A stretch of DNA of 64,000 nt. Source: Tubiluchus corallicola. Its lineage: Eukaryota > Animalia > Priapulida. Under the pieces are notes generated by a model that was not told where the DNA came from, did no database searches, and saw nothing but the letters and a program-made list of their open reading frames with translations. Every line of letters begins with the position of its first letter. Position 1 is the stretch's first letter. This document shows positions 12,488 through 61,545 of the stretch, piece by piece. The position numbers and the translations under genes are program-made. The stretch spans positions 372,001-436,000 of the forward strand of contig JAQGDQ010000014.1 in assembly GCA_030141605.1 (NCBI GenBank). The letters run 5' to 3'.

Positions 12488-12925
<438 letters not shown>

Positions 12926-26329: not shown

Positions 26330-26417
26330 TACCATCACACTCATTGTCATCGTTATTATCATCTCTCATAATCGTCATAATCGTAATCATTGTCATCTTC
26401 GTTGTCATCATCGTCGT

Positions 26418-26449
<32 letters not shown>

Positions 26450-26780
26450 GCACCATCACCACCATCACTATCATCATTATCATCATCATCACTATCATCG
26501 TTATCACAAAAGAGGGATATATAATCATCATTATCATCATCACCATCATCATCATCATCATCATCAGCACCACCACCATCACTATCATCGTTATCACCAT
26601 CATCACTATCATCATTATCACAAAAGAGGGATATATAATCATCATCATCATCATCGTCGTCGTTGTCGTCGTTGTCGTCGTCTTCCTCCTCTTCCTCCTC
26701 CTCCTCCTCCTAGTCATCATTATCGTTATCATATTACAAGGTTATAATCATCATTATCGTTATCATATTACAAGGTTATA
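26330..26780. repeat. (ATC)n-based low-complexity tract with internal duplications
   Basis: ATCACAAAAGAGGGATATATAATCATC occurs twice (~26503, ~26617). ATCATTATCGTTATCATATTACAAGGTTATA occurs twice (~26716, ~26750). Confidence 0.9.
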
Positions 26781-29559: not shown

Positions 29560-30770
29560 CGGTTTCAATTCTTAACGACGAGACTGTAATCTCATACGCT
29601 TAAAAGCGGTGCGATGAAGTTCAAAAGTGTATTTAGGTATTATGACGGGCTCGAACGTGGGACTAAACTTTTCATATGTGTCTCTCTTTGACGAATAACA
29701 CGTTCGAACTGAATCGACATGTTTTTAATGCTCTAATAAAAAATTTTTGTGAGTGGTTCTTATTACTAACAAATTATCAAAACATTTAGTCGGTGTTCCA
29801 TTTGTATTTCTAGCTAGAGTCAGAGTGACCTACAGAGGTCTATGCTTTTCAGGGTGTTCATTAATCTTTTTCCACATTGTCATTTGATGAGATTTTAACC
29901 AGGTTGCTAACAATACAAAATCGTTACACGTAATAGGTCTTACAGACAACAGGGACTTTATCAATTCAAAATACAATCTTAGCTGAAATTAACTCTGAAT
30001 CAGAATTCCAACTTTGTCAACTGTGAAAAACTCCAGCCAGCAATGCGTTTTCCAAAATATTTTTCTTAACCCAGAAAAGAAAAAAAGTAATTCTTATTGA
30101 TAAAACATGGAACTTTATACATGAGTCATTTAAATGCTTAGCATACTAACCTCAAGTTTGGTCTTAACCACATTTATGTCCATTTTGTAATCTTCGCAGA
30201 ATGCTAATAAAGTTTCCATCTTTTCCAGACGTTTTTCGCTGTTGGTTGTAACAATAGAAGTGTCATCCATGAACATAACCTGTGAAAAATCCGTGAGTCC
30301 CCCATCTCTCCCCAGTAACTTTAAAGCTCTCTCCAACGGGTTTATATAAAGACAAAATAGAATACAGGAACTGCGAGATCCTTGCTTCGCCGCAAAACAA
30401 TAACAAATAGTATGATCGCCTAATACACTTGTCGTGCTATACATACGTGCAGTAGCCTGATTCATACGTGAAGTACTGATTCATATCCGTACTTTTTTTA
30501 ATATTTCAAACATTAATGTCCTGCAAACCTGATCACAGGCTTTTTCAAAATCTATAAACAGAATAACATATAATTTTCTCTTTGAGCTCTTGGCAGCATT
30601 TATAAAAAAAATCTCAGCACTAGTATCTGTTCGGCGCTTGCCCACACTGAGCTCCAGATTATTCTGCATCAGGACACACCCAAAATTTTAGCCATTCACT
30701 AATTACAACATCGTATAACTTGCAAAAAGAATTAGCGATACCTATCCCTCTACAGTTATGGCAATTCGCT
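29560..30770 (-). mobile_element. Decayed LINE reverse transcriptase fragment
   Basis: Minus-strand NCRGIGIANSFCKLYD, LYVILFIDFEKACDQV.R, KQGSRSSCILFCLYIN, MFMDDTSIV and INVVKTK, in RT domain order. Confidence 0.8.
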
Positions 30771-41857: not shown

Positions 41858-44800
41858 CTACTAGGGGCTACTATGTATTATATAATAACAGAGTTTATAT
41901 TTGTAATAAATAATTATATTGTATAAAAAGAGCAGACATTCTATTGTGTTATTCGTTAATAAATTTATTATTTGATAAATAAGCAATTAGAAGTCTTCAA
42001 GGGCGGAACCACAACCACCCACGATAGGGTGTAATTTTCAAGGTCATTTTTTGCAAGCTTTTTACCTCAAATTAGTTGTCACAAATTAAATGAAATGGAT
42101 TCTACAACATCTTTTGATGAAAATCAAAGCTAAGTGGTAGCAGCTTTTTCGTTTAAACATAAGTTTAGCCAAGTTGTCACAGTAACAAACTAGGTAACAA
42201 ATCAACAACAATGGATGTAATAATCGTAAACATTTCCTACTGTGTATAGACAGAGTAATGTGTAGTTACAACTACGATTAGTGATTGCAGTAAAAAACTG
42301 CTGTAATACAAACAATTAAGTGTTCACAGAATTATCTAAGTTGGGTAAGAACAGATTAGTAAGGTCATTTCATACAAGATTATAGACTACTTTACACATT
42401 TGTACCCCTTGTTTTCAGTTTTTGGGTTCTTGTTAAAAATCCCGAACATGTGCTCTGCATGCAGAAATGGCCTTGCAGGATATAGAAGACCTTTAGTTAG
42501 TCAGAAAACATTTTTTGTCTCTGCTGCCCCAGAAAACTGGTTTTGGTACATTTCGGCCTTTGGTTATATACTTCTATGATTCAGCAACTACCGTATATCT
42601 GTTTGATCCACTATCTGGATTGTTAATGATTTGCAAAAATCCTATTGTAGCCTATACAGTATAGAAGCATCAAAAATGTATTTTGTTTTCATGTTTTCCA
42701 TGAATTAGTGTTCTAAAACTTGTTTAAATAGTTTTTGCTTTTAATTTACATTGCTTAAGCGCAAAACAGGAATTCAGTTTGGCAGTAGATCGGTATGTCC
42801 TCGGCCGACTTGTCTGTTTATTAAAGGGAAACACGTGGCTTCGAGAAGCCCAAATTTACTGTATCAGATCTCGTCCGCCTCAGTGTACCCTTCTGTAAGC
42901 GCAGCTTAGATTTCTCTGGGGTTGGAATTACTTAATAAAAAAAATGATGTAGGAACTACAAACAATCAAAACGACGTGTTTCTGTTTAAAAATAAAATTT
43001 ACAAACATCTTCAAAATGACCTTTTGAATTTAAACAGAATTTTTTTCTAAACGAGGTTAAGATTGGGTATATTATATTTACGATCTTGAAGGTCACTCAT
43101 AGTTGTTGTTTTTTACTGCTGCAGAGCAAAAATATTGAAGCCAAATTTGCAGCATATCAAACAGTGATTAGTGAAAACTTAACGTATAGAAAATTGAGTA
43201 CTTATTTGAGCACTTAATTGAGCACTTATTCAAAAAGTAACTTGTTTCAAACTTAACTTAGTTTCCTCTCACACTCTAACTTTTCTTTAGCTCCGAAACC
43301 CACGTACTTGTTTTTATTTTTGAAAGCTGTTAGAGAAATTGCTCAGAGTTCGGACTGAGTATCAAATAAATCACATCGATTTTAAATTCCATTCTTATTT
43401 GACATTACGATACACAAACAAAAACAATTTCGGGGCTGAATAAACTTTATTTTGCATTTATTTGAATTTAAACCTTTATTGCAGAATTTCTTCCGTATAC
43501 TAAACAGTAAAATGGTAATATTTAGAGAGTATTCATACAAGACTGGTAACATTGCTTTTAAGTTAGTTTTTATAAATGAGTTTGAGTTTTTTCATGAATA
43601 ACCTACAACACTCACATACGTGTGTAAGTCATATTCACGCAGTTCAAATCGACGCTGTTTTGGCTGAACGTGGGTTAATCATATCAAATTTAGGGCTGCG
43701 TATATAATCCTGCCTGTTTTTCTTTGCATATAGTGCCTTCCGGGTGTTATACCCGCTTGTTGTCGCAACAATATCGAGATTAAACTAACAGAATTGTCTA
43801 GCAATCAATAGCCAGGCGAATTGAATAAGCTAGATTTCATATATAGAAAATTTTGGTAAAACTAATTGCTGCACGGCCTTTCACCGTTGCGTGCGGCTTC
43901 TTACGCGGGTTACATGAACTGGCTGCGGCGTAGTGTGCCCCGTAATACAGCCGCGTAGTGTGCGCATTAAAACAGCACTGAAGGCCAACTATTGCAACTA
44001 AGGCGAAATGCTATTCAATTTCACCCCACCCTCGATATTGTAATGATTCACACCATTACAAATTCACTGCCACCTAAAACAGGCTGGGATATAATAGTTC
44101 TGTAGCGTGATGTCACTGGTATTCTAGCGCATATAACAATGCACGCTCACATGTGACGAAACACAAGATGTTAATGTATCAAAATAAGCCGTTACATAAT
44201 TCCAGCGATTGACGATGATCGTGAAAAGGTCAATGGTTAACTGTACCAGACAACGTATTTGTGTACACTTGACAACGCCTCGCAGTCCATGCTGTTGTAA
44301 TAGTAAGAGTTTTTTAACTCTACCTATCTAGCTAGCTAGAACCTTACCTAGTTCATTTTTTTGTTCCCAAGCAAGATCCTGTTAGTAAATCACTCTACTT
44401 GCAGACTAATGCATAATGAAGTAAAGTACACGTAAAACAACTGACATTACTGAACTAATGCGGGAGGGTGCTTTTCTTTTGCCACCCATCATATGACGGT
44501 TGTAGTTAAGACACGTTTTTGTGGTGCACTTTTGACCTGCAGCAACTGCGCGTGCACAAAACGAAACTGTGAATAAGCTTATTTTTCTCGATATTCCAAC
44601 CTACGAATGTCCAAAATAGGGAGCTGACAAAAATTCAGCTGGGTCTGGAAGGACCTTGCATTGTAAGTTCCCTTAATGATGCTGCCGGCCTTCAATACTT
44701 TTTATGCTTTCAGGCTTTAAGCATTGTGTATTTGCTGTGATACCTGCTTTGATGTGTGTTTGTTGAATATTTCTTATGAATATTTTTACTGTTTTGTCTA

Positions 44801-45409: not shown

Positions 45410-45532
45410 GACGGAAGGAAATTACAATCTAAATTTCCTAAGCCTAACAATAGCCCTAATCTTAACCCTGACCATAACTCTAATCCGCTTCACGAACAAA
45501 TTTCTCGTGTGTGGGAAATTGTAAACTTTAAC
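45410..45532. repeat. Small interspersed element containing degenerate (CCCTAA)n, copy 2
   Basis: CGGAAGGAAATTACAAT...CCTAAGCCTAAC...CCCTAATCTTAACCCTGACCATAACTCTAA...TTGTAAACTTTA. Confidence 0.5.
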
Positions 45533-45558
45533 CATTTTGACTTTGCTAGCGTTTAAAC

Positions 45559-45775
45559 ATAGTTTTAGATAAAGCGCGTGCGCATAGAGAGATTGCTAGC
45601 TTACGCATCGAACAGTACTTCAAAGTGTGCAGTTTTTGTTTAACAATCGAATGCAGTTTTGCCCAACAACATGGCGCCCATTGTTTGCCGAACAGCAGAG
45701 CAATTGTTTGCCTCCTTTTGCCTCACCTTTTGCGCGAGTCTAGCAATCTCTATCTGAGGACGCACCTAAATCAGT
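45559..45775. mobile_element. MITE-like inverted-repeat element (possibly Mutator-type) in the promoter region of the DCX gene
   Basis: Perfect 12-bp inverted repeat AGAGATTGCTAG (45588-45599) / CTAGCAATCTCT (45740-45751), extending imperfectly outward. Flanked by a 10-bp direct repeat GCGTTTAAAC (45549-45558, 45776-45785). Contains NRF1-like GCGCGTGCGCA (45574) and YY1-like CAACATGGCG (45667). Confidence 0.5.
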
Positions 45776-45805: not shown

Positions 45806-45818
45806 GTTGCTGGGTTAC
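45806..45818 (-). promoter_or_regulatory. RFX X-box candidate upstream of the multi-DCX gene
   Basis: Plus strand GTTGCTGGGTTAC; reverse complement GTAACC-C-AGCAAC fits the consensus GTNRCC(N0-3)RGYAAC exactly. It ends ~170 bp before the ATG, and a GTTACTA half-site follows. Confidence 0.55.
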
Positions 45819-45985
45819 TGCTGTTACTAAGAGCTACTGTAACTATTCTGTTTTCTTTCTCTCCCTGATGCATGATGAGGATAAGGAGTGATGTTCCGTA
45901 TTGGCACAAATGGCATGTATGGAATTAGGAACCAAGATACCAAGATTTTGAGTGTCTTCGGTTGCATAAACTAAACACAAGGAAG

Positions 45986-48900
45986 ATGAGTGAAGAAAAG
46001 ACACAGCCGGCTCAAAAGAGCATACCATCAAAAGCAACTTCAAGGCCAAATACCTCTGGTACTAAATCTAACCAGCCTGCAACCAAGGCAGCAATAGCTC
46101 GAACACAGACTCGCATGCGTAAGCTACCTAGCATAAAAACAGTAAAGGTGTTCATAAATGGCGACCCTTCGTTTGATGGTAAACGGTTTGTTATCAATAA
46201 CAAATATATACAAGACTTTCCCGCTTTAATGGATGAATTGAGTTTTTCCATGAAACCAAATTTTGGAAAAGTTAGGAATCTTTGGCAGGCCGAGAATGGG
46301 AAGCGAGTGGTTGAAATGGATGCAATTGTCCATGGCGCAAATTATGTTGCAGGCGGATTAGGACCTTTCAGACCTTTAAACTATGAAGAAATTGAGGCAA
46401 TTCGGAAAGCATTCCAGGCAGCTGAGATTGCTAGACGTAAGTCCCGTACTTCTGTTAGTGGCGTTCGTCGTGAGTCCAATGAAGAAAACCTTAGCCGGCA
46501 ACCAGTGCTTATTGACATTTTTAAAAATGGTGATACACATTTTTTTCCTGTGAGACTTTTGCTGAGAAAACCCGATTTGCTGAGCTTCGAAACAGTCCTG
46601 CAGGCCATTGCAATGAAAGTTCAATTGTCCAGTGGTGGCTGTATTAAGAGGTTGTATCGCTTGTCGGATGGGCTTAAGGTATCTCATGTTCATCAGATTG
46701 AACCCTTTGGCTGTTATGTTGCTGCTGCTAACGAAAAGTTCAAGACTACGTCTTACAAAACGCCAAAGGCCATCCAGGAAGCTGAAAAATCCATGCTAGA
46801 AAAAGCAGTAGCTAAAGCAATAGCTGACGCAGAAGAACAGAAAAAACGCATGCGCAAACAGCAGACTGTACTGCCAATGGTTATCACTGTGTACAAAAAT
46901 GGCGATGAAAAATTTGATCCTGTTAGTTTATTATTATATGAGAGAGATGTACTGTCTCTTGAAAATACGCTGGAGCAAATTGCCATCAAGGCTCACCTGA
47001 CTAAAGAGATGGCTCAAACACTGTTTCGTATGGATGATGGATCAAAGGTTGATGATCCTTTTGACTTAGATTTTAATGCTACCTATGTTGTTGGGGGCCT
47101 GGGGGAAAAATTCAAACGTGTGGCTTATAAACTACTGGATGCTGTTACTACTGAGGTTCAAGAGGAATATTCTCCAGAGCTAGATAGCACTGAACCTTCT
47201 ACAGTTGATAAAGGCCAAATGGAGGAAACAGACGATGTTAGTTCTGGAACTGGAATCATGATTACTGTGTACAAAAATGGCGATGAAAGTTTTGAACCGC
47301 TTAAGCTCCGCTTGAATAAGAATTACCTGAAGTCACTTGACAACGCTTTGCAGCAAATTTGCGAGAAGACTCATTTACCAGAAAGTGAAGTCACTAACTT
47401 GTATGGTATGGATGGCAGAAAGATCGAGAGATCTCTTGATTTGGACAATAATGGTGTCTTTGTTCTAGCTGGTACTGGAGAAGAGTTTAAAGGAGTAAAT
47501 TACAAGGAACCAGAAAGTGCTTTTGAAATCGGCAGTGCGATAGTAGTATATAAAAATGGCGATGAAGATTTTAAACCTGTAAGGTTACATTTGTATGAGG
47601 ATGATGTGACATCATCTGAAAAAACTCAAGAAGTAATTGCTAACAAAGCTCACCTGAACAAAGATGATGTCAATGCCTTGTATCACATGGAGGATGGTAA
47701 GAAGGTAGATAACCAACTTGATTTGGTGGAGGATGACAATGGCGTTTTTGTTGCTACTGGAGATGGAGAAAAATTTGAACTAGTGGATTACAAACCCGTG
47801 GATGATGCTTTTGAAACAGTAATTACAGTATACAGAAATGGTGACGAAAATTTTAAACCAGTTAGGCTACGTTTGTGTAAAGATGCTTTAATGTCATTTG
47901 AAAAAACAATGCAAGAAATTGCTGAAAAGGCTGGTCTTAGTGAAAGTGAAGTCAAAACCTTGTATCGTGCAAAGGATGGAAGAAAGATGGACGACCCTCT
48001 TGACCTAGATAATGATGGTGTTTTTGTTGTTGCTGGTGCAGGAGAAAAATTCAAACCACTGTCAAAGAGTTATAAACCACTTGGCAGCGTTTCGGATGTT
48101 GTGGTAACTGTGTATAAAAATGGCGATGAAAGTTTTAAACCAGTGAAGCTTCGTTTGCATAAGGATGATCTAAAGTCACTTGAATACCACTTGAAACAAA
48201 TTGCCAGGAAGGCTAAATTGAATGAAAGTGAAGTCAAAACATTATTCCATAAAAATGATGGCAGTGAAATTAATGATCTACTCGATATAGTAAATAATGA
48301 TGTCGTTGTTGTTGGTGGTTTAGCAGAAAAATTTAAGCCAGTTGCTTATAAACCACTAACCAGTGCTTCTGAAGCTGTGATAACCATATTCAAAAATGGT
48401 GATGAAGAATTCGAACCCATCAAAATACGTTTGTCCACGGATGAACAAAAGTCCTTTGAGAGTCACTTGCAACAAATTGCCAAAAAGACCAAACTGAATG
48501 AAAGTGGTGTGAAAACTTTGTATCGAATGGATGATGGCAAAAATATAGATGACCCGCTTGACATAGATGATGGTGGTGTTTTTGTTGTTGCTGGCGCAAG
48601 AGAAAAATTTAAGGCAGTGGATTACAAATCAGCAGCACGGTCTTCCGAAGCTGTGATCACCGTGTACAAAAATGGCGATAAAAATTTTAGACCAGTCAGA
48701 ATATGTGTGAACAAGGATGGTGGGGAAACCCTTGAAAGTCATTTGCAACAAATTGCAGAAAAGGCTCGTCTTAGTGAAAGTGAAGTCAGAGCCTTGTATC
48801 GTATGAAAGATGGTAGTAAGGTGGATGACCCTCTTCTTATAGATAATGATGGCGTTTTTGTAGTTGCTGGTGCAGGAGAAAAATTTGAACAAGTGGCTTA

Positions 48901-49894
48901 TAAACCTATAGTCACTGATGCTGTAATAACTGTGTATAAAAATGGCGACAAAGACTTTGCAGGTGTCAGGTTACATTTGTGTAAAGATGATCTTAAGTCT
49001 GTTAAAGCCATACTGCAGCAAATTGCCAAGAAAACGCGTTTAGATGAAAGTGAAGTACAAACTTTATTTCGCCTAGAGGATGGCAAAGAAATTAACGACC
49101 CTTCAGAAATAGATAATAATGGTGTTTATGTTACTAGTGCTGAAGGAGAAAAATTCAAGTTGATAGCTTATGAGCCACCTAGAAGTCCTGAATTCGTGTT
49201 CACTGTTTACAAAAATGGGGATGAAAACTTTGAACCCATTAAGATACATTTGTATAAAGATGACTTAATATCTTTTGATAGAATGCTACAAAAGATAGCT
49301 GAAAAGGCACACCTAAGCGACAGTGAAGTCAAAACCTTGTTTCGCAAGGAGGATGGTAAAAAACTTGAAGACCCACTTGACTTAGACCTCGACGGAGAGT
49401 TTGTTGTTGGTGGTGTGGGGGAATCATTTAAACCTGTGGCTTATAAACAATTGACCAGTGCTTCTGACATTGATATTACTGTTTACAAAAATGGTGATGA
49501 CAGCTTTGCACCTGTTAGAGTACATTTGAGCAAACAAGATCTTAAGTCACTCGAGACTGCAATGAAGCAAATTGCCGTCAATACTGACTTGAAAAAAAGC
49601 GAAGTCGAAACTTTATATCGCATGTTAGATGGCAGAAGAGTTGATAACTCACTTGATATAGACAACGACGGTACATTTGTAGTTGCTGGTAAAGGTGAAA
49701 AATTTAAATGGGTTCCATATAGACCGCAGCGGCGACCGAGAACAGCTGCAGCTCCAGGTGAACCGTGCCTTTGTGGGACGGAAGAAGGAGATGCCAAGTG
49801 CAAGAAGCATCGCTTCATTCCCGCAAACATACCTGCAGATTACCGTTCAATTTGCCCAGCGAGGAAGCAGGTGATAGGCAGGTGGTTGCATTGA
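45986..49894 (+). CDS. DCDC2-like protein with 12 tandem doublecortin (DCX) domains, single coding exon, 1302 aa
   Basis: Long ORF with no stops (the ORF track starts at an upstream TTG; first ATG is 45986). Twelve copies of the DCX signature (V/I)x(V/I)(Y/F)xNGD...L(Y/F)...G...(Y/F)V...E.F...Y. NGD codons start at 46157, 46526, 46898, 47276, 47555, 47837, 48119, 48395, 48671, 48941, 49214 and 49490. Domain 1 (KTVKVFINGDPSFDGKRFVI...FGKVRNL...NYVAGG..PF..LNY) and domain 2 resemble the N-DC and C-DC domains of DCDC2 from memory. Confidence 0.93.
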   Translation: MSEEKTQPAQKSIPSKATSRPNTSGTKSNQPATKAAIARTQTRMRKLPSIKTVKVFINGDPSFDGKRFVINNKYIQDFPALMDELSFSMKPNFGKVRNLWQAENGKRVVEMDAIVHGANYVAGGLGPFRPLNYEEIEAIRKAFQAAEIARRKSRTSVSGVRRESNEENLSRQPVLIDIFKNGDTHFFPVRLLLRKPDLLSFETVLQAIAMKVQLSSGGCIKRLYRLSDGLKVSHVHQIEPFGCYVAAANEKFKTTSYKTPKAIQEAEKSMLEKAVAKAIADAEEQKKRMRKQQTVLPMVITVYKNGDEKFDPVSLLLYERDVLSLENTLEQIAIKAHLTKEMAQTLFRMDDGSKVDDPFDLDFNATYVVGGLGEKFKRVAYKLLDAVTTEVQEEYSPELDSTEPSTVDKGQMEETDDVSSGTGIMITVYKNGDESFEPLKLRLNKNYLKSLDNALQQICEKTHLPESEVTNLYGMDGRKIERSLDLDNNGVFVLAGTGEEFKGVNYKEPESAFEIGSAIVVYKNGDEDFKPVRLHLYEDDVTSSEKTQEVIANKAHLNKDDVNALYHMEDGKKVDNQLDLVEDDNGVFVATGDGEKFELVDYKPVDDAFETVITVYRNGDENFKPVRLRLCKDALMSFEKTMQEIAEKAGLSESEVKTLYRAKDGRKMDDPLDLDNDGVFVVAGAGEKFKPLSKSYKPLGSVSDVVVTVYKNGDESFKPVKLRLHKDDLKSLEYHLKQIARKAKLNESEVKTLFHKNDGSEINDLLDIVNNDVVVVGGLAEKFKPVAYKPLTSASEAVITIFKNGDEEFEPIKIRLSTDEQKSFESHLQQIAKKTKLNESGVKTLYRMDDGKNIDDPLDIDDGGVFVVAGAREKFKAVDYKSAARSSEAVITVYKNGDKNFRPVRICVNKDGGETLESHLQQIAEKARLSESEVRALYRMKDGSKVDDPLLIDNDGVFVVAGAGEKFEQVAYKPIVTDAVITVYKNGDKDFAGVRLHLCKDDLKSVKAILQQIAKKTRLDESEVQTLFRLEDGKEINDPSEIDNNGVYVTSAEGEKFKLIAYEPPRSPEFVFTVYKNGDENFEPIKIHLYKDDLISFDRMLQKIAEKAHLSDSEVKTLFRKEDGKKLEDPLDLDLDGEFVVGGVGESFKPVAYKQLTSASDIDITVYKNGDDSFAPVRVHLSKQDLKSLETAMKQIAVNTDLKKSEVETLYRMLDGRRVDNSLDIDNDGTFVVAGKGEKFKWVPYRPQRRPRTAAAPGEPCLCGTEEGDAKCKKHRFIPANIPADYRSICPARKQVIGRWLH

Positions 49895-50896
49895 TTTCTG
49901 GACTACAATTTGTTAGCGCACTGAGAGTATTCTTGGTTGTCATGTAAGAAAGGGAGTCATGTTGTCGTACTGCAAACATTGGCAAAATGTAAGCTTGGCA
50001 CTGTTTGATTTAATATTGTTGTAAAACAGCAAGATAAAAATAAGACGACTGTACGCAACATATAAGTTTTCTTAAAGCTTCTTTTAGAGTTTTTCTTTCA
50101 CTTACCCTGTATGACGCATCGCTCAGAACTAGTCGCTTTTCATCGAATTTGTATTTCTTGAAATGTTTTGCTGCTATATCTCTGATATATGGATTGTCTT
50201 TTGGTAGGCAGCGTTTGGAGTAGCACTATAGCAGCCGGACCGCTTGCGTCTGAATTAAAAAAAATGTTAAAAAAATGAATATTCTTGACACGAAGTTTGT
50301 GTTTTTGAACGGTAAGGAGGCCCAGCATGCTAATTAAATCCGCAACCAAAACTGTGATCATTTGAGTCCTTACCAAAGCTGGGCTTAGATCAACTTTGGT
50401 CTGCACAAACTGTGAACAACTGTCAACAAACGAGCATGAACCGAGGCCGTTTACACTATAGAAGGAATAGGTGACACTATATGCGAATATTATAGTACTT
50501 ACCACGACAACACGCATAATTTGCACATGTATATTTTTGTCAGTGGTGTAAACGAGTCTATATCGACAAGTCTTCTAATAGTTTGAATAATTTAAGATCA
50601 TGATTATCAGTTAAAGAAGATAATAACTGACCATACAGATGAACATTGTAGTCTTGCACAAAAGCAATAACAAAATTTACAACACAAGATGTGATCAATA
50701 AAAGACGACAATTTATTTATGACGCTTGAAACAGCAGACCAAACCATGGCTTATGAGTTGTAATTAAGCTATTCACAGAGATTAAAATCTTGTCATCTTA
50801 TTTGACAATGCATTGTTATGATAAGTAAGTGAATAAAATACTCTTCCTAAAACTTGTTTATCCATCCTAGAAACAATGTGCTGAGATTGACTCGTT

Positions 50897-51205
50897 CAGT
50901 CAGTTAATCAGTCAGTCAGTCAGTCAGTCAGTCAGTCAGTCAGTCAGTCAGTCAGTCAGTCAGTCAGTCAGTCAGTCAGTCAGTCAGTCAGTCAGTCAGT
51001 CAGTCAGTCAGTCAGTCAGTCAGTCAGTCAGTCAGTCAGTCAGTCAGTCAGTCAGTCAGTCAGTCAGTCAGTCAGTCAGTCAGTCAGTCAGTCAGTCAGT
51101 CAGTCAGTCAGTCAGTCAGTCAGTCAGTCAGTCAGTCAGTCAACCAGCTAACCAGCCAGCCAGCCAGCGAGCGAGCGAGTGAGTGAGTGAGTCAGTCAGT
51201 GAGTC
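50897..51205. repeat. (CAGT)n microsatellite with derived tetramers
   Basis: Directly visible. Confidence 0.97.

Positions 51206-60409: not shown

Positions 60410-61545
<1,136 letters not shown>

Follow-up and report, generated by a model that had tools for sequence, protein, structure and literature searches.

A priapulid DCDC2-like gene with twelve tandem doublecortin domains, ten of them carrying a remodelled loop

A single open reading frame (ORF) at positions 45986-49894 of the 64,000-nt stretch of Tubiluchus corallicola DNA analysed here (the window) encodes 1302 amino acids with no internal stop; the alternative frames across the same interval hold 77 and 174 stops. Twelve NGD motifs lie along the ORF at spacings of 369, 372, 378, 279, 282, 282, 276, 276, 270, 273, and 276 nt, exactly reproducing the preliminary description of a 1302-aa ORF with 12 doublecortin (DCX) repeats. 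The ORF, like its parts below, is on the forward strand, and it was classed as DCDC2-like with 12 DCX domains on the ORF reading, Pfam, and an HMM made from relatives only. Pfam PF03607 scored the ORF at 254 bits (cut-off 22; E 4.8e-77), with 11 stretches individually reaching E<=1 where 12 matches had been expected. The relatives-only HMM, made from 302 DCX domains that all came from other proteins, did match 12 of 12 (43-77 bits, E<=2.5e-13), repeats 3-12 included.

The protein opens with a basic segment rich in Ser, Thr, Lys, and Pro (45986-46135; net +8 by charge count). DCX 1 (46136-46387; net +2) is N-type by HMM (N-HMM 91 vs. C-HMM 52 bits) and by tree; domains 2-12, that is 11 of the 12, are C-type and cluster together. 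A 39-aa linker (median in relatives 38) leads to DCX 2 (46505-46759; net +5), in which the loop glycine and basic pair are retained. DCX 3 (46877-47131; net -4) is also C-type and preceded by a 39-aa linker, but its loop is remodelled; an acidic linker of 41 aa (47132-47254; net -11) follows. DCX 4 (47255-47506; net -2) opens a close-packed run that comprises DCX 5 (47534-47794; net -11, the lowest score of the 12 at 43 bits), DCX 6 (47816-48076; net 0), DCX 7 (48098-48352; net +2), DCX 8 (48374-48628; net -3), DCX 9 (48650-48904; net -1), DCX 10 (48920-49174; net -3), DCX 11 (49193-49447; net -5), and DCX 12 (49469-49723; net 0). The linkers between domains 4-12 measure 5-9 aa, against about 38 in relatives. 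A basic 56-aa tail with four Cys, lacking the DCDC2 tail motif, ends the frame together with the stop codon (49724-49894). As donor-like GT sites lie within this interval, the 3' end may be spliced; the term "intronless", used in the preliminary description, holds for the coding frame and at the DNA level only.

DCX 8 and DCX 9 were modelled together. Folded with an alignment, these two domains gave a predicted model with a mean pLDDT of 90.9, which Foldseek superposed on the DCDC2 domain 2dnf at an rmsd of 2.4 Å and on 5io9 at 2.6 Å. In the modelled pair, the ubiquitin-like beta-grasp fold of DCX domains is kept. A single-sequence fold of 1200 aa was uninformative (pLDDT 31), and a two-copy complex prediction of domains 8-9 gave a score of 0.02 (mark 0.32).

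The array was compared with contigs from three runs of one sample (X1-X3), which may be the source of the window, and from a second study (X4). One X1 contig and one X2 contig span the whole ORF. The X2 contig differs from the window by 1 letter and leaves the reading frame intact. Deletions of 1-2 nt that shift the frame occur in the X1 and X3 contigs, all in homopolymers and absent from X2, and from X4 where X4 covers them. The X4 data do not span the ORF; over the six pieces listed they match the gene but for one synonymous change, and they agree with the window at position 49592. Moreover, the repeats are only 60-76% alike in DNA, leaving nothing for an assembler to expand. Mis-assembly of the array, a possibility raised in the preliminary description, was rejected: independent contigs give no sign of it, the X2 contig being in frame across the ORF and the X1/X3 deletions being confined to homopolymers. 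Around the gene, Pfam recognised only a reverse-transcriptase fragment and no neighbour gene among the 150 longest of the 199 flanking ORFs that are non-repetitive, tblastn with 152 proteins found no DCX-related exon in the window outside the ORF, and no clear direct repeat flanking the gene appeared among the 20 of 34 repeat families listed.

In a search of 1.84 billion proteins, the best matches were two-domain DCDC2-like proteins of the DCDC2A/2B/2C group (Anneissia XP_033117416, Branchiostoma XP_078584515, Owenia CAH1774299, and Pycnogonum CAM1328720), the top five matches being 33-38% identical across the first domain pair. These matches, together with an N-type then C-type pair at the N-terminus, bear out the DCDC2-like identity first proposed. 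Among 151 relatives, 143 proteins have 2 DCX domains, 7 have 3, and 1 has 1; none has more than 3, in keeping with the earlier statement that no DCDC2-type protein with a 12-domain array was known. The exact protein sequence is absent from the 1.84-billion-protein collection. With the full protein, a word-indexed search of 7993 candidates 716-2279 aa long gave no match reaching E<=0.001; such searches likewise gave no match to domains 6-8 among 6517 longer candidates, and one protein for residues 45-400. They are insensitive, as another search returned 510 proteins. The ESM Atlas offered, as leads only, ordinary DCX clusters at 0.82-0.85. An HMM of the shared DCDC2 tail motif matched 80 of 152 proteins and found the motif neither in the ORF nor in the six frames of the window; it may lie in a distant spliced exon beyond the window.

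The surplus domains depart from their relatives in loop and charge. DCX-microtubule contacts are mostly electrostatic, and loop 3 enters the protofilament groove (PMC7726794); residues N94 and I95 of that study fall in the remodelled loop in the 4atu alignment. Domains 3-12 were compared with the 143 C-type domains of relatives. The groove-facing loop glycine, present in 132 of 143 relatives, occurs in none of the ten, and the position next to it is acidic in eight of ten vs. 0/143. The second basic residue of the loop is likewise missing from all ten (115/143 in relatives), and the strand-helix loop is acidic in 7/10 vs. 0/143. The median net charge of domains 3-12 is -2.5, against +3 in the relatives (minimum -2; Mann-Whitney P 4e-7, a value that ignores the kinship of the repeats). 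Six other conserved basic columns are kept or gained in 10, 9, 7, 9, 8, and 8 of the ten domains. DCX 1, at net +2, equals the minimum of 143 N-type domains. At the sequence level, changes of loop and charge are common to all ten repeats, a feature missed in the preliminary description. Sequence signs of microtubule binding are retained in domains 1-2 and lost in part from domains 3-12.

The repeats are under constraint. Pairwise identity among repeats 3-12 is 45-66% in protein, and the median dN/dS is 0.29 (42 of 45 pairs, three with saturated dS being left out), supporting the purifying selection suggested earlier. Although dS between repeats exceeds 1, no stop has appeared; in a neutral simulation of the 949 repeat codons, 0 of 2000 runs stayed stop-free after 0.3 substitutions per site. 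The level of constraint is similar across all repeats. The tree built from the 12 repeats has a star-like shape, none of its nine inner branches being supported. As domains 2-12 are C-type and cluster together, the second domain of this gene is the likely source of the array, which presumably arose by repeated in-frame duplication of this C-type domain within an intron-free coding frame.

Upstream of the ATG by 168 nt, on the reverse strand, lies a strict match to the RFX X-box (45806-45818; GTNRCC N1 RGYAAC, the consensus printed in PMC10530576). It is the sole strict match in the 64 kb, and 2000 shufflings of the kilobase upstream of the gene gave P 0.007. This is one short motif, which came to light after the locus had been inspected several times. 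A relaxed X-box-like site adjoins the strict one (45823-45837, reverse strand); the same kilobase holds two relaxed sites (P 0.02) and the window eight. In humans, DCDC2 is under X-box/RFX control and belongs to the axoneme (PMC5024701). The strict X-box points to ciliary expression as a prediction, and the protein would likely be made in ciliated cells or sperm.

Taken together, we favour, at a probability of roughly 45%, a DCDC2-family ciliary microtubule binder in which a canonical anchor would carry a folded, weakly binding arm resembling a chain of beads. The basic N-terminus and domains 1-2 would dock at the four-tubulin vertex, as in DCX; this anchor is suggested by the canonical types of domains 1-2, their 39-aa linker, and their basic charge. 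Domains 3-12 would make up a folded arm, a spacer or scaffold with weak or no lattice binding; this role is suggested by their altered loop and charge, the short linkers of domains 4-12, the kept fold, and the absent tail motif. The arm would stand in for the disordered, acidic tail that ordinary DCDC2 proteins have; at about 35-45 nm, a length estimated from the size of the ubiquitin fold rather than computed, it might set spacing or recruit partners. The basic columns kept or gained in domains 3-12, the net +2 of DCX 7, and the mere +2 of DCX 1 count against this reading.

The preliminary description had proposed a multivalent microtubule or axoneme scaffold. The X-box agrees with the ciliary context, whereas multivalent binding by all 12 domains fits poorly with the loop and charge of domains 3-12, though several conserved basic residues are kept. 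A possible but less probable reading is nonetheless that each of the twelve domains attaches to microtubules or to oligomers of tubulin, weak repeats adding up by avidity to a strong stabiliser, bundler, or nucleator. In its favour are the intact fold of modelled domains 8-9, the six conserved basic columns retained in 7-10 of 10 repeats, and the similar constraint on every repeat; the multiplied type is the C-terminal domain (CDC), the driver of nucleation and 13-protofilament choice in DCX (PMC7726794), and oyster tau/MAP2-type repeats reach ten copies (PMC8985376). However, all ten repeats have changed in loop and charge, linkers of 5-9 aa fall far below the length of ~40 aa with which a pair of DCX domains can reach two sites on the lattice (PMC6281474), and an engineered CDC-CDC construct merely aggregated (PMC7726794). 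Self-association is unlikely: docked molecules would be joined via their C-type domains, which make up 11 of 12, and the resulting network would cross-link microtubule arrays or make them stiffer, as in an accessory structure of sperm or of a sensory cilium. DCX is described as self-associating on the lattice via its CDC (PMC9122500), and in the mechanosensory cilia of flies DCX-EMAP is described as organising dense arrays of microtubules (PMC10471123); the mostly acidic repeats, however, bear like charges and would tend to repel one another.

We consider it improbable that the ORF is a retrocopy that is decaying or not expressed, or that it is an artefact of assembly. A coding frame without introns, where vertebrate DCDC2A has 4-5 exons over the DCX domains (PMC1550402 Table 2), and the frameshifts in the X1 and X3 contigs would suit such an origin, but a stop-free array with dN/dS 0.29 at dS >1, the limited likeness of the repeats, the in-frame X2 contig, the agreement of X4 at 49592, and the upstream X-box speak against it. 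Since a 13-protofilament microtubule has twelve grooves besides its seam (PMC7726794), as many as there are DCX domains here, the chain might also be a molecular ruler, wrapping one lattice turn or spanning a fixed axonemal distance and templating architecture via its re-tuned low-affinity loop; we give this slightly less credence still. Least probable is a platform of tandem ubiquitin folds with no connection to tubulin, such as a linear-polyubiquitin-like docking chain, for although di-ubiquitin and ISG15 chains take the top Foldseek ranks with the two-domain model, they match at an rmsd of 11-16 Å and a TM of ~0.35 through two beta-grasp folds in tandem only and were rejected as architecture-only, while the best per-domain matches are DCX (rmsd 2.4-2.6 Å) and the sequence is plainly DCX.

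DCX domains have been studied almost solely as pairs, and the role of the C-terminal one is disputed between lattice binding with nucleation (PMC7726794) and self-association (PMC9122500). A C-type domain that alone has been multiplied tenfold, with the same loop rewritten in each copy under selection, would be a natural test of what it can do beyond, or in addition to, lattice binding. In addition, in what is likely a ciliary protein, a disordered tail has apparently given way to a folded chain of fixed length.

Against the 151 relatives, what is new here is the 12-DCX array with remodelled C-type copies; the DCX pair itself belongs to the known DCDC2 family. With DCDC2-like proteins the gene shares the N-type then C-type pair, the linker of ~39 aa, the lack of a kinase, EMAP, or ricin domain (none found in the ORF by Pfam scan), and a candidate X-box upstream, as in human DCDC2. 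It differs in having 12 domains instead of 2, the ten surplus C-type copies being altered in loop and charge, and in its 5-9 aa linkers, missing tail motif, and intron-free coding frame. DCX and DCLK1 (PDB 4atu, 6rf2, 6rev, 1mfw) share the fold and the tandem N+C arrangement of domains 1-2 (aligned together, these two match human doublecortin, 4atu, at E 7.9e-14), but they are farther than DCDC2, and this protein has an array of 12 without a Ser/Pro tail or kinase. The three-DCX proteins of fungi, seven of the 151 relatives (for example the chytrid Entophlyctis KAI8928996 and the blastoclad Sorochytrium KAL7749915), also exceed two DCX domains per chain, but have three only, all basic, with linkers of ~60 and ~20 aa. 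All three domains of the two fungal proteins in the tree fall on the N-type side, and their expansion is therefore separate from that of this gene. DCDC1/DCDC5 proteins (PF24478, PF25510) contain several DCX-like domains, and PF24478 cross-matches two stretches of the ORF. They carry a ricin-B lectin domain among the DCX domains (PMC3106376), which the Pfam scan does not find here, and PF03607 fits the ORF far better. Molluscan tau/MAP2-type proteins offer a parallel in the lineage-specific growth of repeat number in a microtubule-associated protein (PMC8985376), although their repeats (up to 10 copies) are unrelated, short, and unfolded, in contrast to the folded DCX domains of the present array.

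The plus-strand interval 45986–49894 holds a single ORF of 1302 codons with twelve doublecortin (DCX) domains; it is real, under selection and unusual in architecture. The other two frames across it carry 77 and 174 stops, and the NGD motif spacings listed in the preliminary description were reproduced (n = 12 motifs). That description had expected twelve hits with the Pfam DCX model; PF03607 scored 254 bits against the ORF, with 11 stretches individually significant, and all twelve domains were recovered (43–77 bits) by an HMM built from 302 DCX domains of relatives, all from other proteins. The structure of DCX 8–9, predicted from a 72-row alignment with a pLDDT of 90.9, lay within 2.4 Å of the DCDC2 domain 2dnf and 2.6 Å of doublecortin 5io9. 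The 56-aa tail (49724–49894) contains four Cys and two His residues, and donor-like splice sites occur in the 3′ tail region at 49755, 49868, and 49879; splicing may yield an alternative 3′ end.

A protein search over 1.84 billion representatives gave 510 matches, none below 1e-30; the best 150 of these plus one from a separate search formed a set of 151 relatives. The named top matches were DCDC2-like proteins of a crinoid, a lancelet, sharks, a sea spider, and reptiles, alongside an unnamed annelid DCX protein and unicellular holozoan proteins. They aligned mostly with DCX 1–2, in agreement with the DCDC2-like identity proposed earlier. Two DCX domains were found in 143 relatives, three in seven, and one in one; none of the 151 compared had more than three, which bears out the proposed absence of a like architecture within a search that would overlook highly divergent arrays and animal genomes lacking annotation. 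A similar array would be expected to rank first, because whole-protein scores sum over domains. A literature search, with most subscription journals outside its coverage, found no comparable DCX array.

DCX 1 resembles the first domain of an ordinary pair (N-type, 91 bits versus 52 as C-type), whereas each of DCX 2–12 scored higher as C-type, the second domain, than as N-type. A tree of 66 domains over 85 columns was built by a quick method from the 12 repeats and the domains of 24 selected relatives with two domains and 2 with three. It separated N and C sides (SH-aLRT 95) and placed DCX 2–12 in one group (88) together with one long-branch outsider. The simplest account of these data would be repeated in-frame duplication of the second DCX domain of the same gene; the tree of the 12 repeats was star-like and indicated no order of duplication.

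The charge, loop, linker, tail, and X-box features described here were not part of the preliminary description. C-type domains of 143 relatives had a median net charge of +3 (minimum −2); values were +2 for DCX 1, +5 for DCX 2, and −4, −2, −11, 0, +2, −3, −1, −3, −5, and 0 for DCX 3–12 in order. The glycine of the post-helix loop, present in 132/143 relatives, was found in 0/10 of repeats 3–12, as was the second basic residue of this loop (115/143 relatives). An acidic residue directly followed the glycine position in eight of ten repeats and an acidic substitution occupied the strand–helix loop in seven of ten, compared with 0/143 relatives in both cases. As described in PMC7726794, contacts between DCX and the lattice are chiefly electrostatic, and loop 3, with N94 and I95, inserts in the protofilament groove; by alignment with 4atu, these two residues fall in the remodelled post-helix loop. 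Linkers measured 39, 39, and 41 aa and then 5–9 aa (median of relatives, 38). Of 152 proteins, 80 matched the DCDC2 tail motif, which was absent from the ORF and the 64-kb window.

We tentatively read the product, at a probability of roughly 0.45, as a ciliary or flagellar microtubule-associated protein. Its basic N-terminus and DCX 1–2 would dock on the microtubule lattice, and DCX 3–12 would form a folded, neutral-to-acidic bead chain that replaces the usual disordered tail and serves as a spacer or scaffold; lattice docking, ciliary location, and arm function are what we infer. That all twelve domains bind by avidity is less likely, even though six conserved basic columns are retained in 7–10 of the 10 repeats and certain columns of repeats 3–12 acquire basic residues; these columns disfavor a total loss of microtubule binding in the repeats. 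A self-association network is improbable.

A dead copy or artefact is more doubtful still. Repeats 3–12 gave pairwise medians of 1.25 for dS, 0.35 for dN, and 0.29 for dN/dS (42 of 45 pairs, three saturated pairs being dropped), and 0/2000 copies simulated under neutrality remained open at 0.3 substitutions per site, which upholds the earlier suggestion of purifying selection. Expansion of the array by the assembler is implausible because repeats 3–12 are only 60–76% identical in DNA. Among contigs from four sequencing runs, the whole ORF was covered by one from X1 (4615 nt) and one from X2 (5264 nt); X1–X3 represent one sample that may be the source of the window itself. The X2 contig differed by one letter, at 49312 (missense H1109Q); X1 and X3 contigs carried 1–2 nt deletions, every one at a homopolymer, with a shared site at 49592 where X2 and X4 match the window. 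X4, from a separate study, matched in the six gene pieces listed, which do not span the array, with one synonymous change at 47332. A ubiquitin-fold platform unrelated to tubulin is the least probable reading of all.

A strict X-box, by the consensus printed in PMC10530576, lies 168 nt 5′ of the ATG (P = 0.007) and is the sole strict match in 64 kb; a relaxed one adjoins it (P = 0.02). P values were obtained from shuffles of the upstream kilobase, and 0.45 strict matches were expected per shuffled window. Human DCDC2 is described as RFX-regulated and axonemal (PMC5024701), and DCDC2C as located at the sperm tail tip (PMC13515645). Short high-copy interspersed repeats lie 5′ of the gene (~44530–44583, ~45454–45534, the latter starting with CCCTAA-like units, and ~45629–45702), where contigs from elsewhere in the genome stack in number. 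A 24-nt inverted repeat bounding 45576–45763 suggests a MITE immediately 5′ of the X-boxes. At 45845–45885, a pyrimidine-rich tract followed by AG is possibly a 5′ UTR splice acceptor.

The genome is animal-like and repeat-rich. A Pfam scan of 150 flanking ORFs gave no convincing match besides a reverse transcriptase fragment (PF00078, E 2.2e-10) at 30133–30480 on the minus strand, likely a decayed LINE-type element. Long microsatellites at 60410–61490, 12492–12923, 50896–51142, and 26347–26655 (units CCACTA ×178, GA ×217, TCAG ×62, and TCA/CAT runs) yield long low-complexity open frames with no gene signs.

All seven three-DCX relatives (P0072, P0086, P0113, P0122, P0129, P0136, and P0152) are chytrid or blastoclad fungal proteins with linkers of ~60 and ~20 aa; for the two placed in the domain tree, the extra domains fall on the N side, and by this placement the three-DCX form is an independent expansion. 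Vertebrate DCDC2A has 4–5 exons across its DCX domains (PMC1550402, Table 2), whereas the coding frame here is free of introns, which would have eased in-frame duplication. The gene may be either a retrogene or an orthologue from which introns were lost. The head region is DCDC2-like but the two-domain count and the tail of DCDC2 are lacking, and we therefore class the gene as derived from the DCDC2 subfamily.
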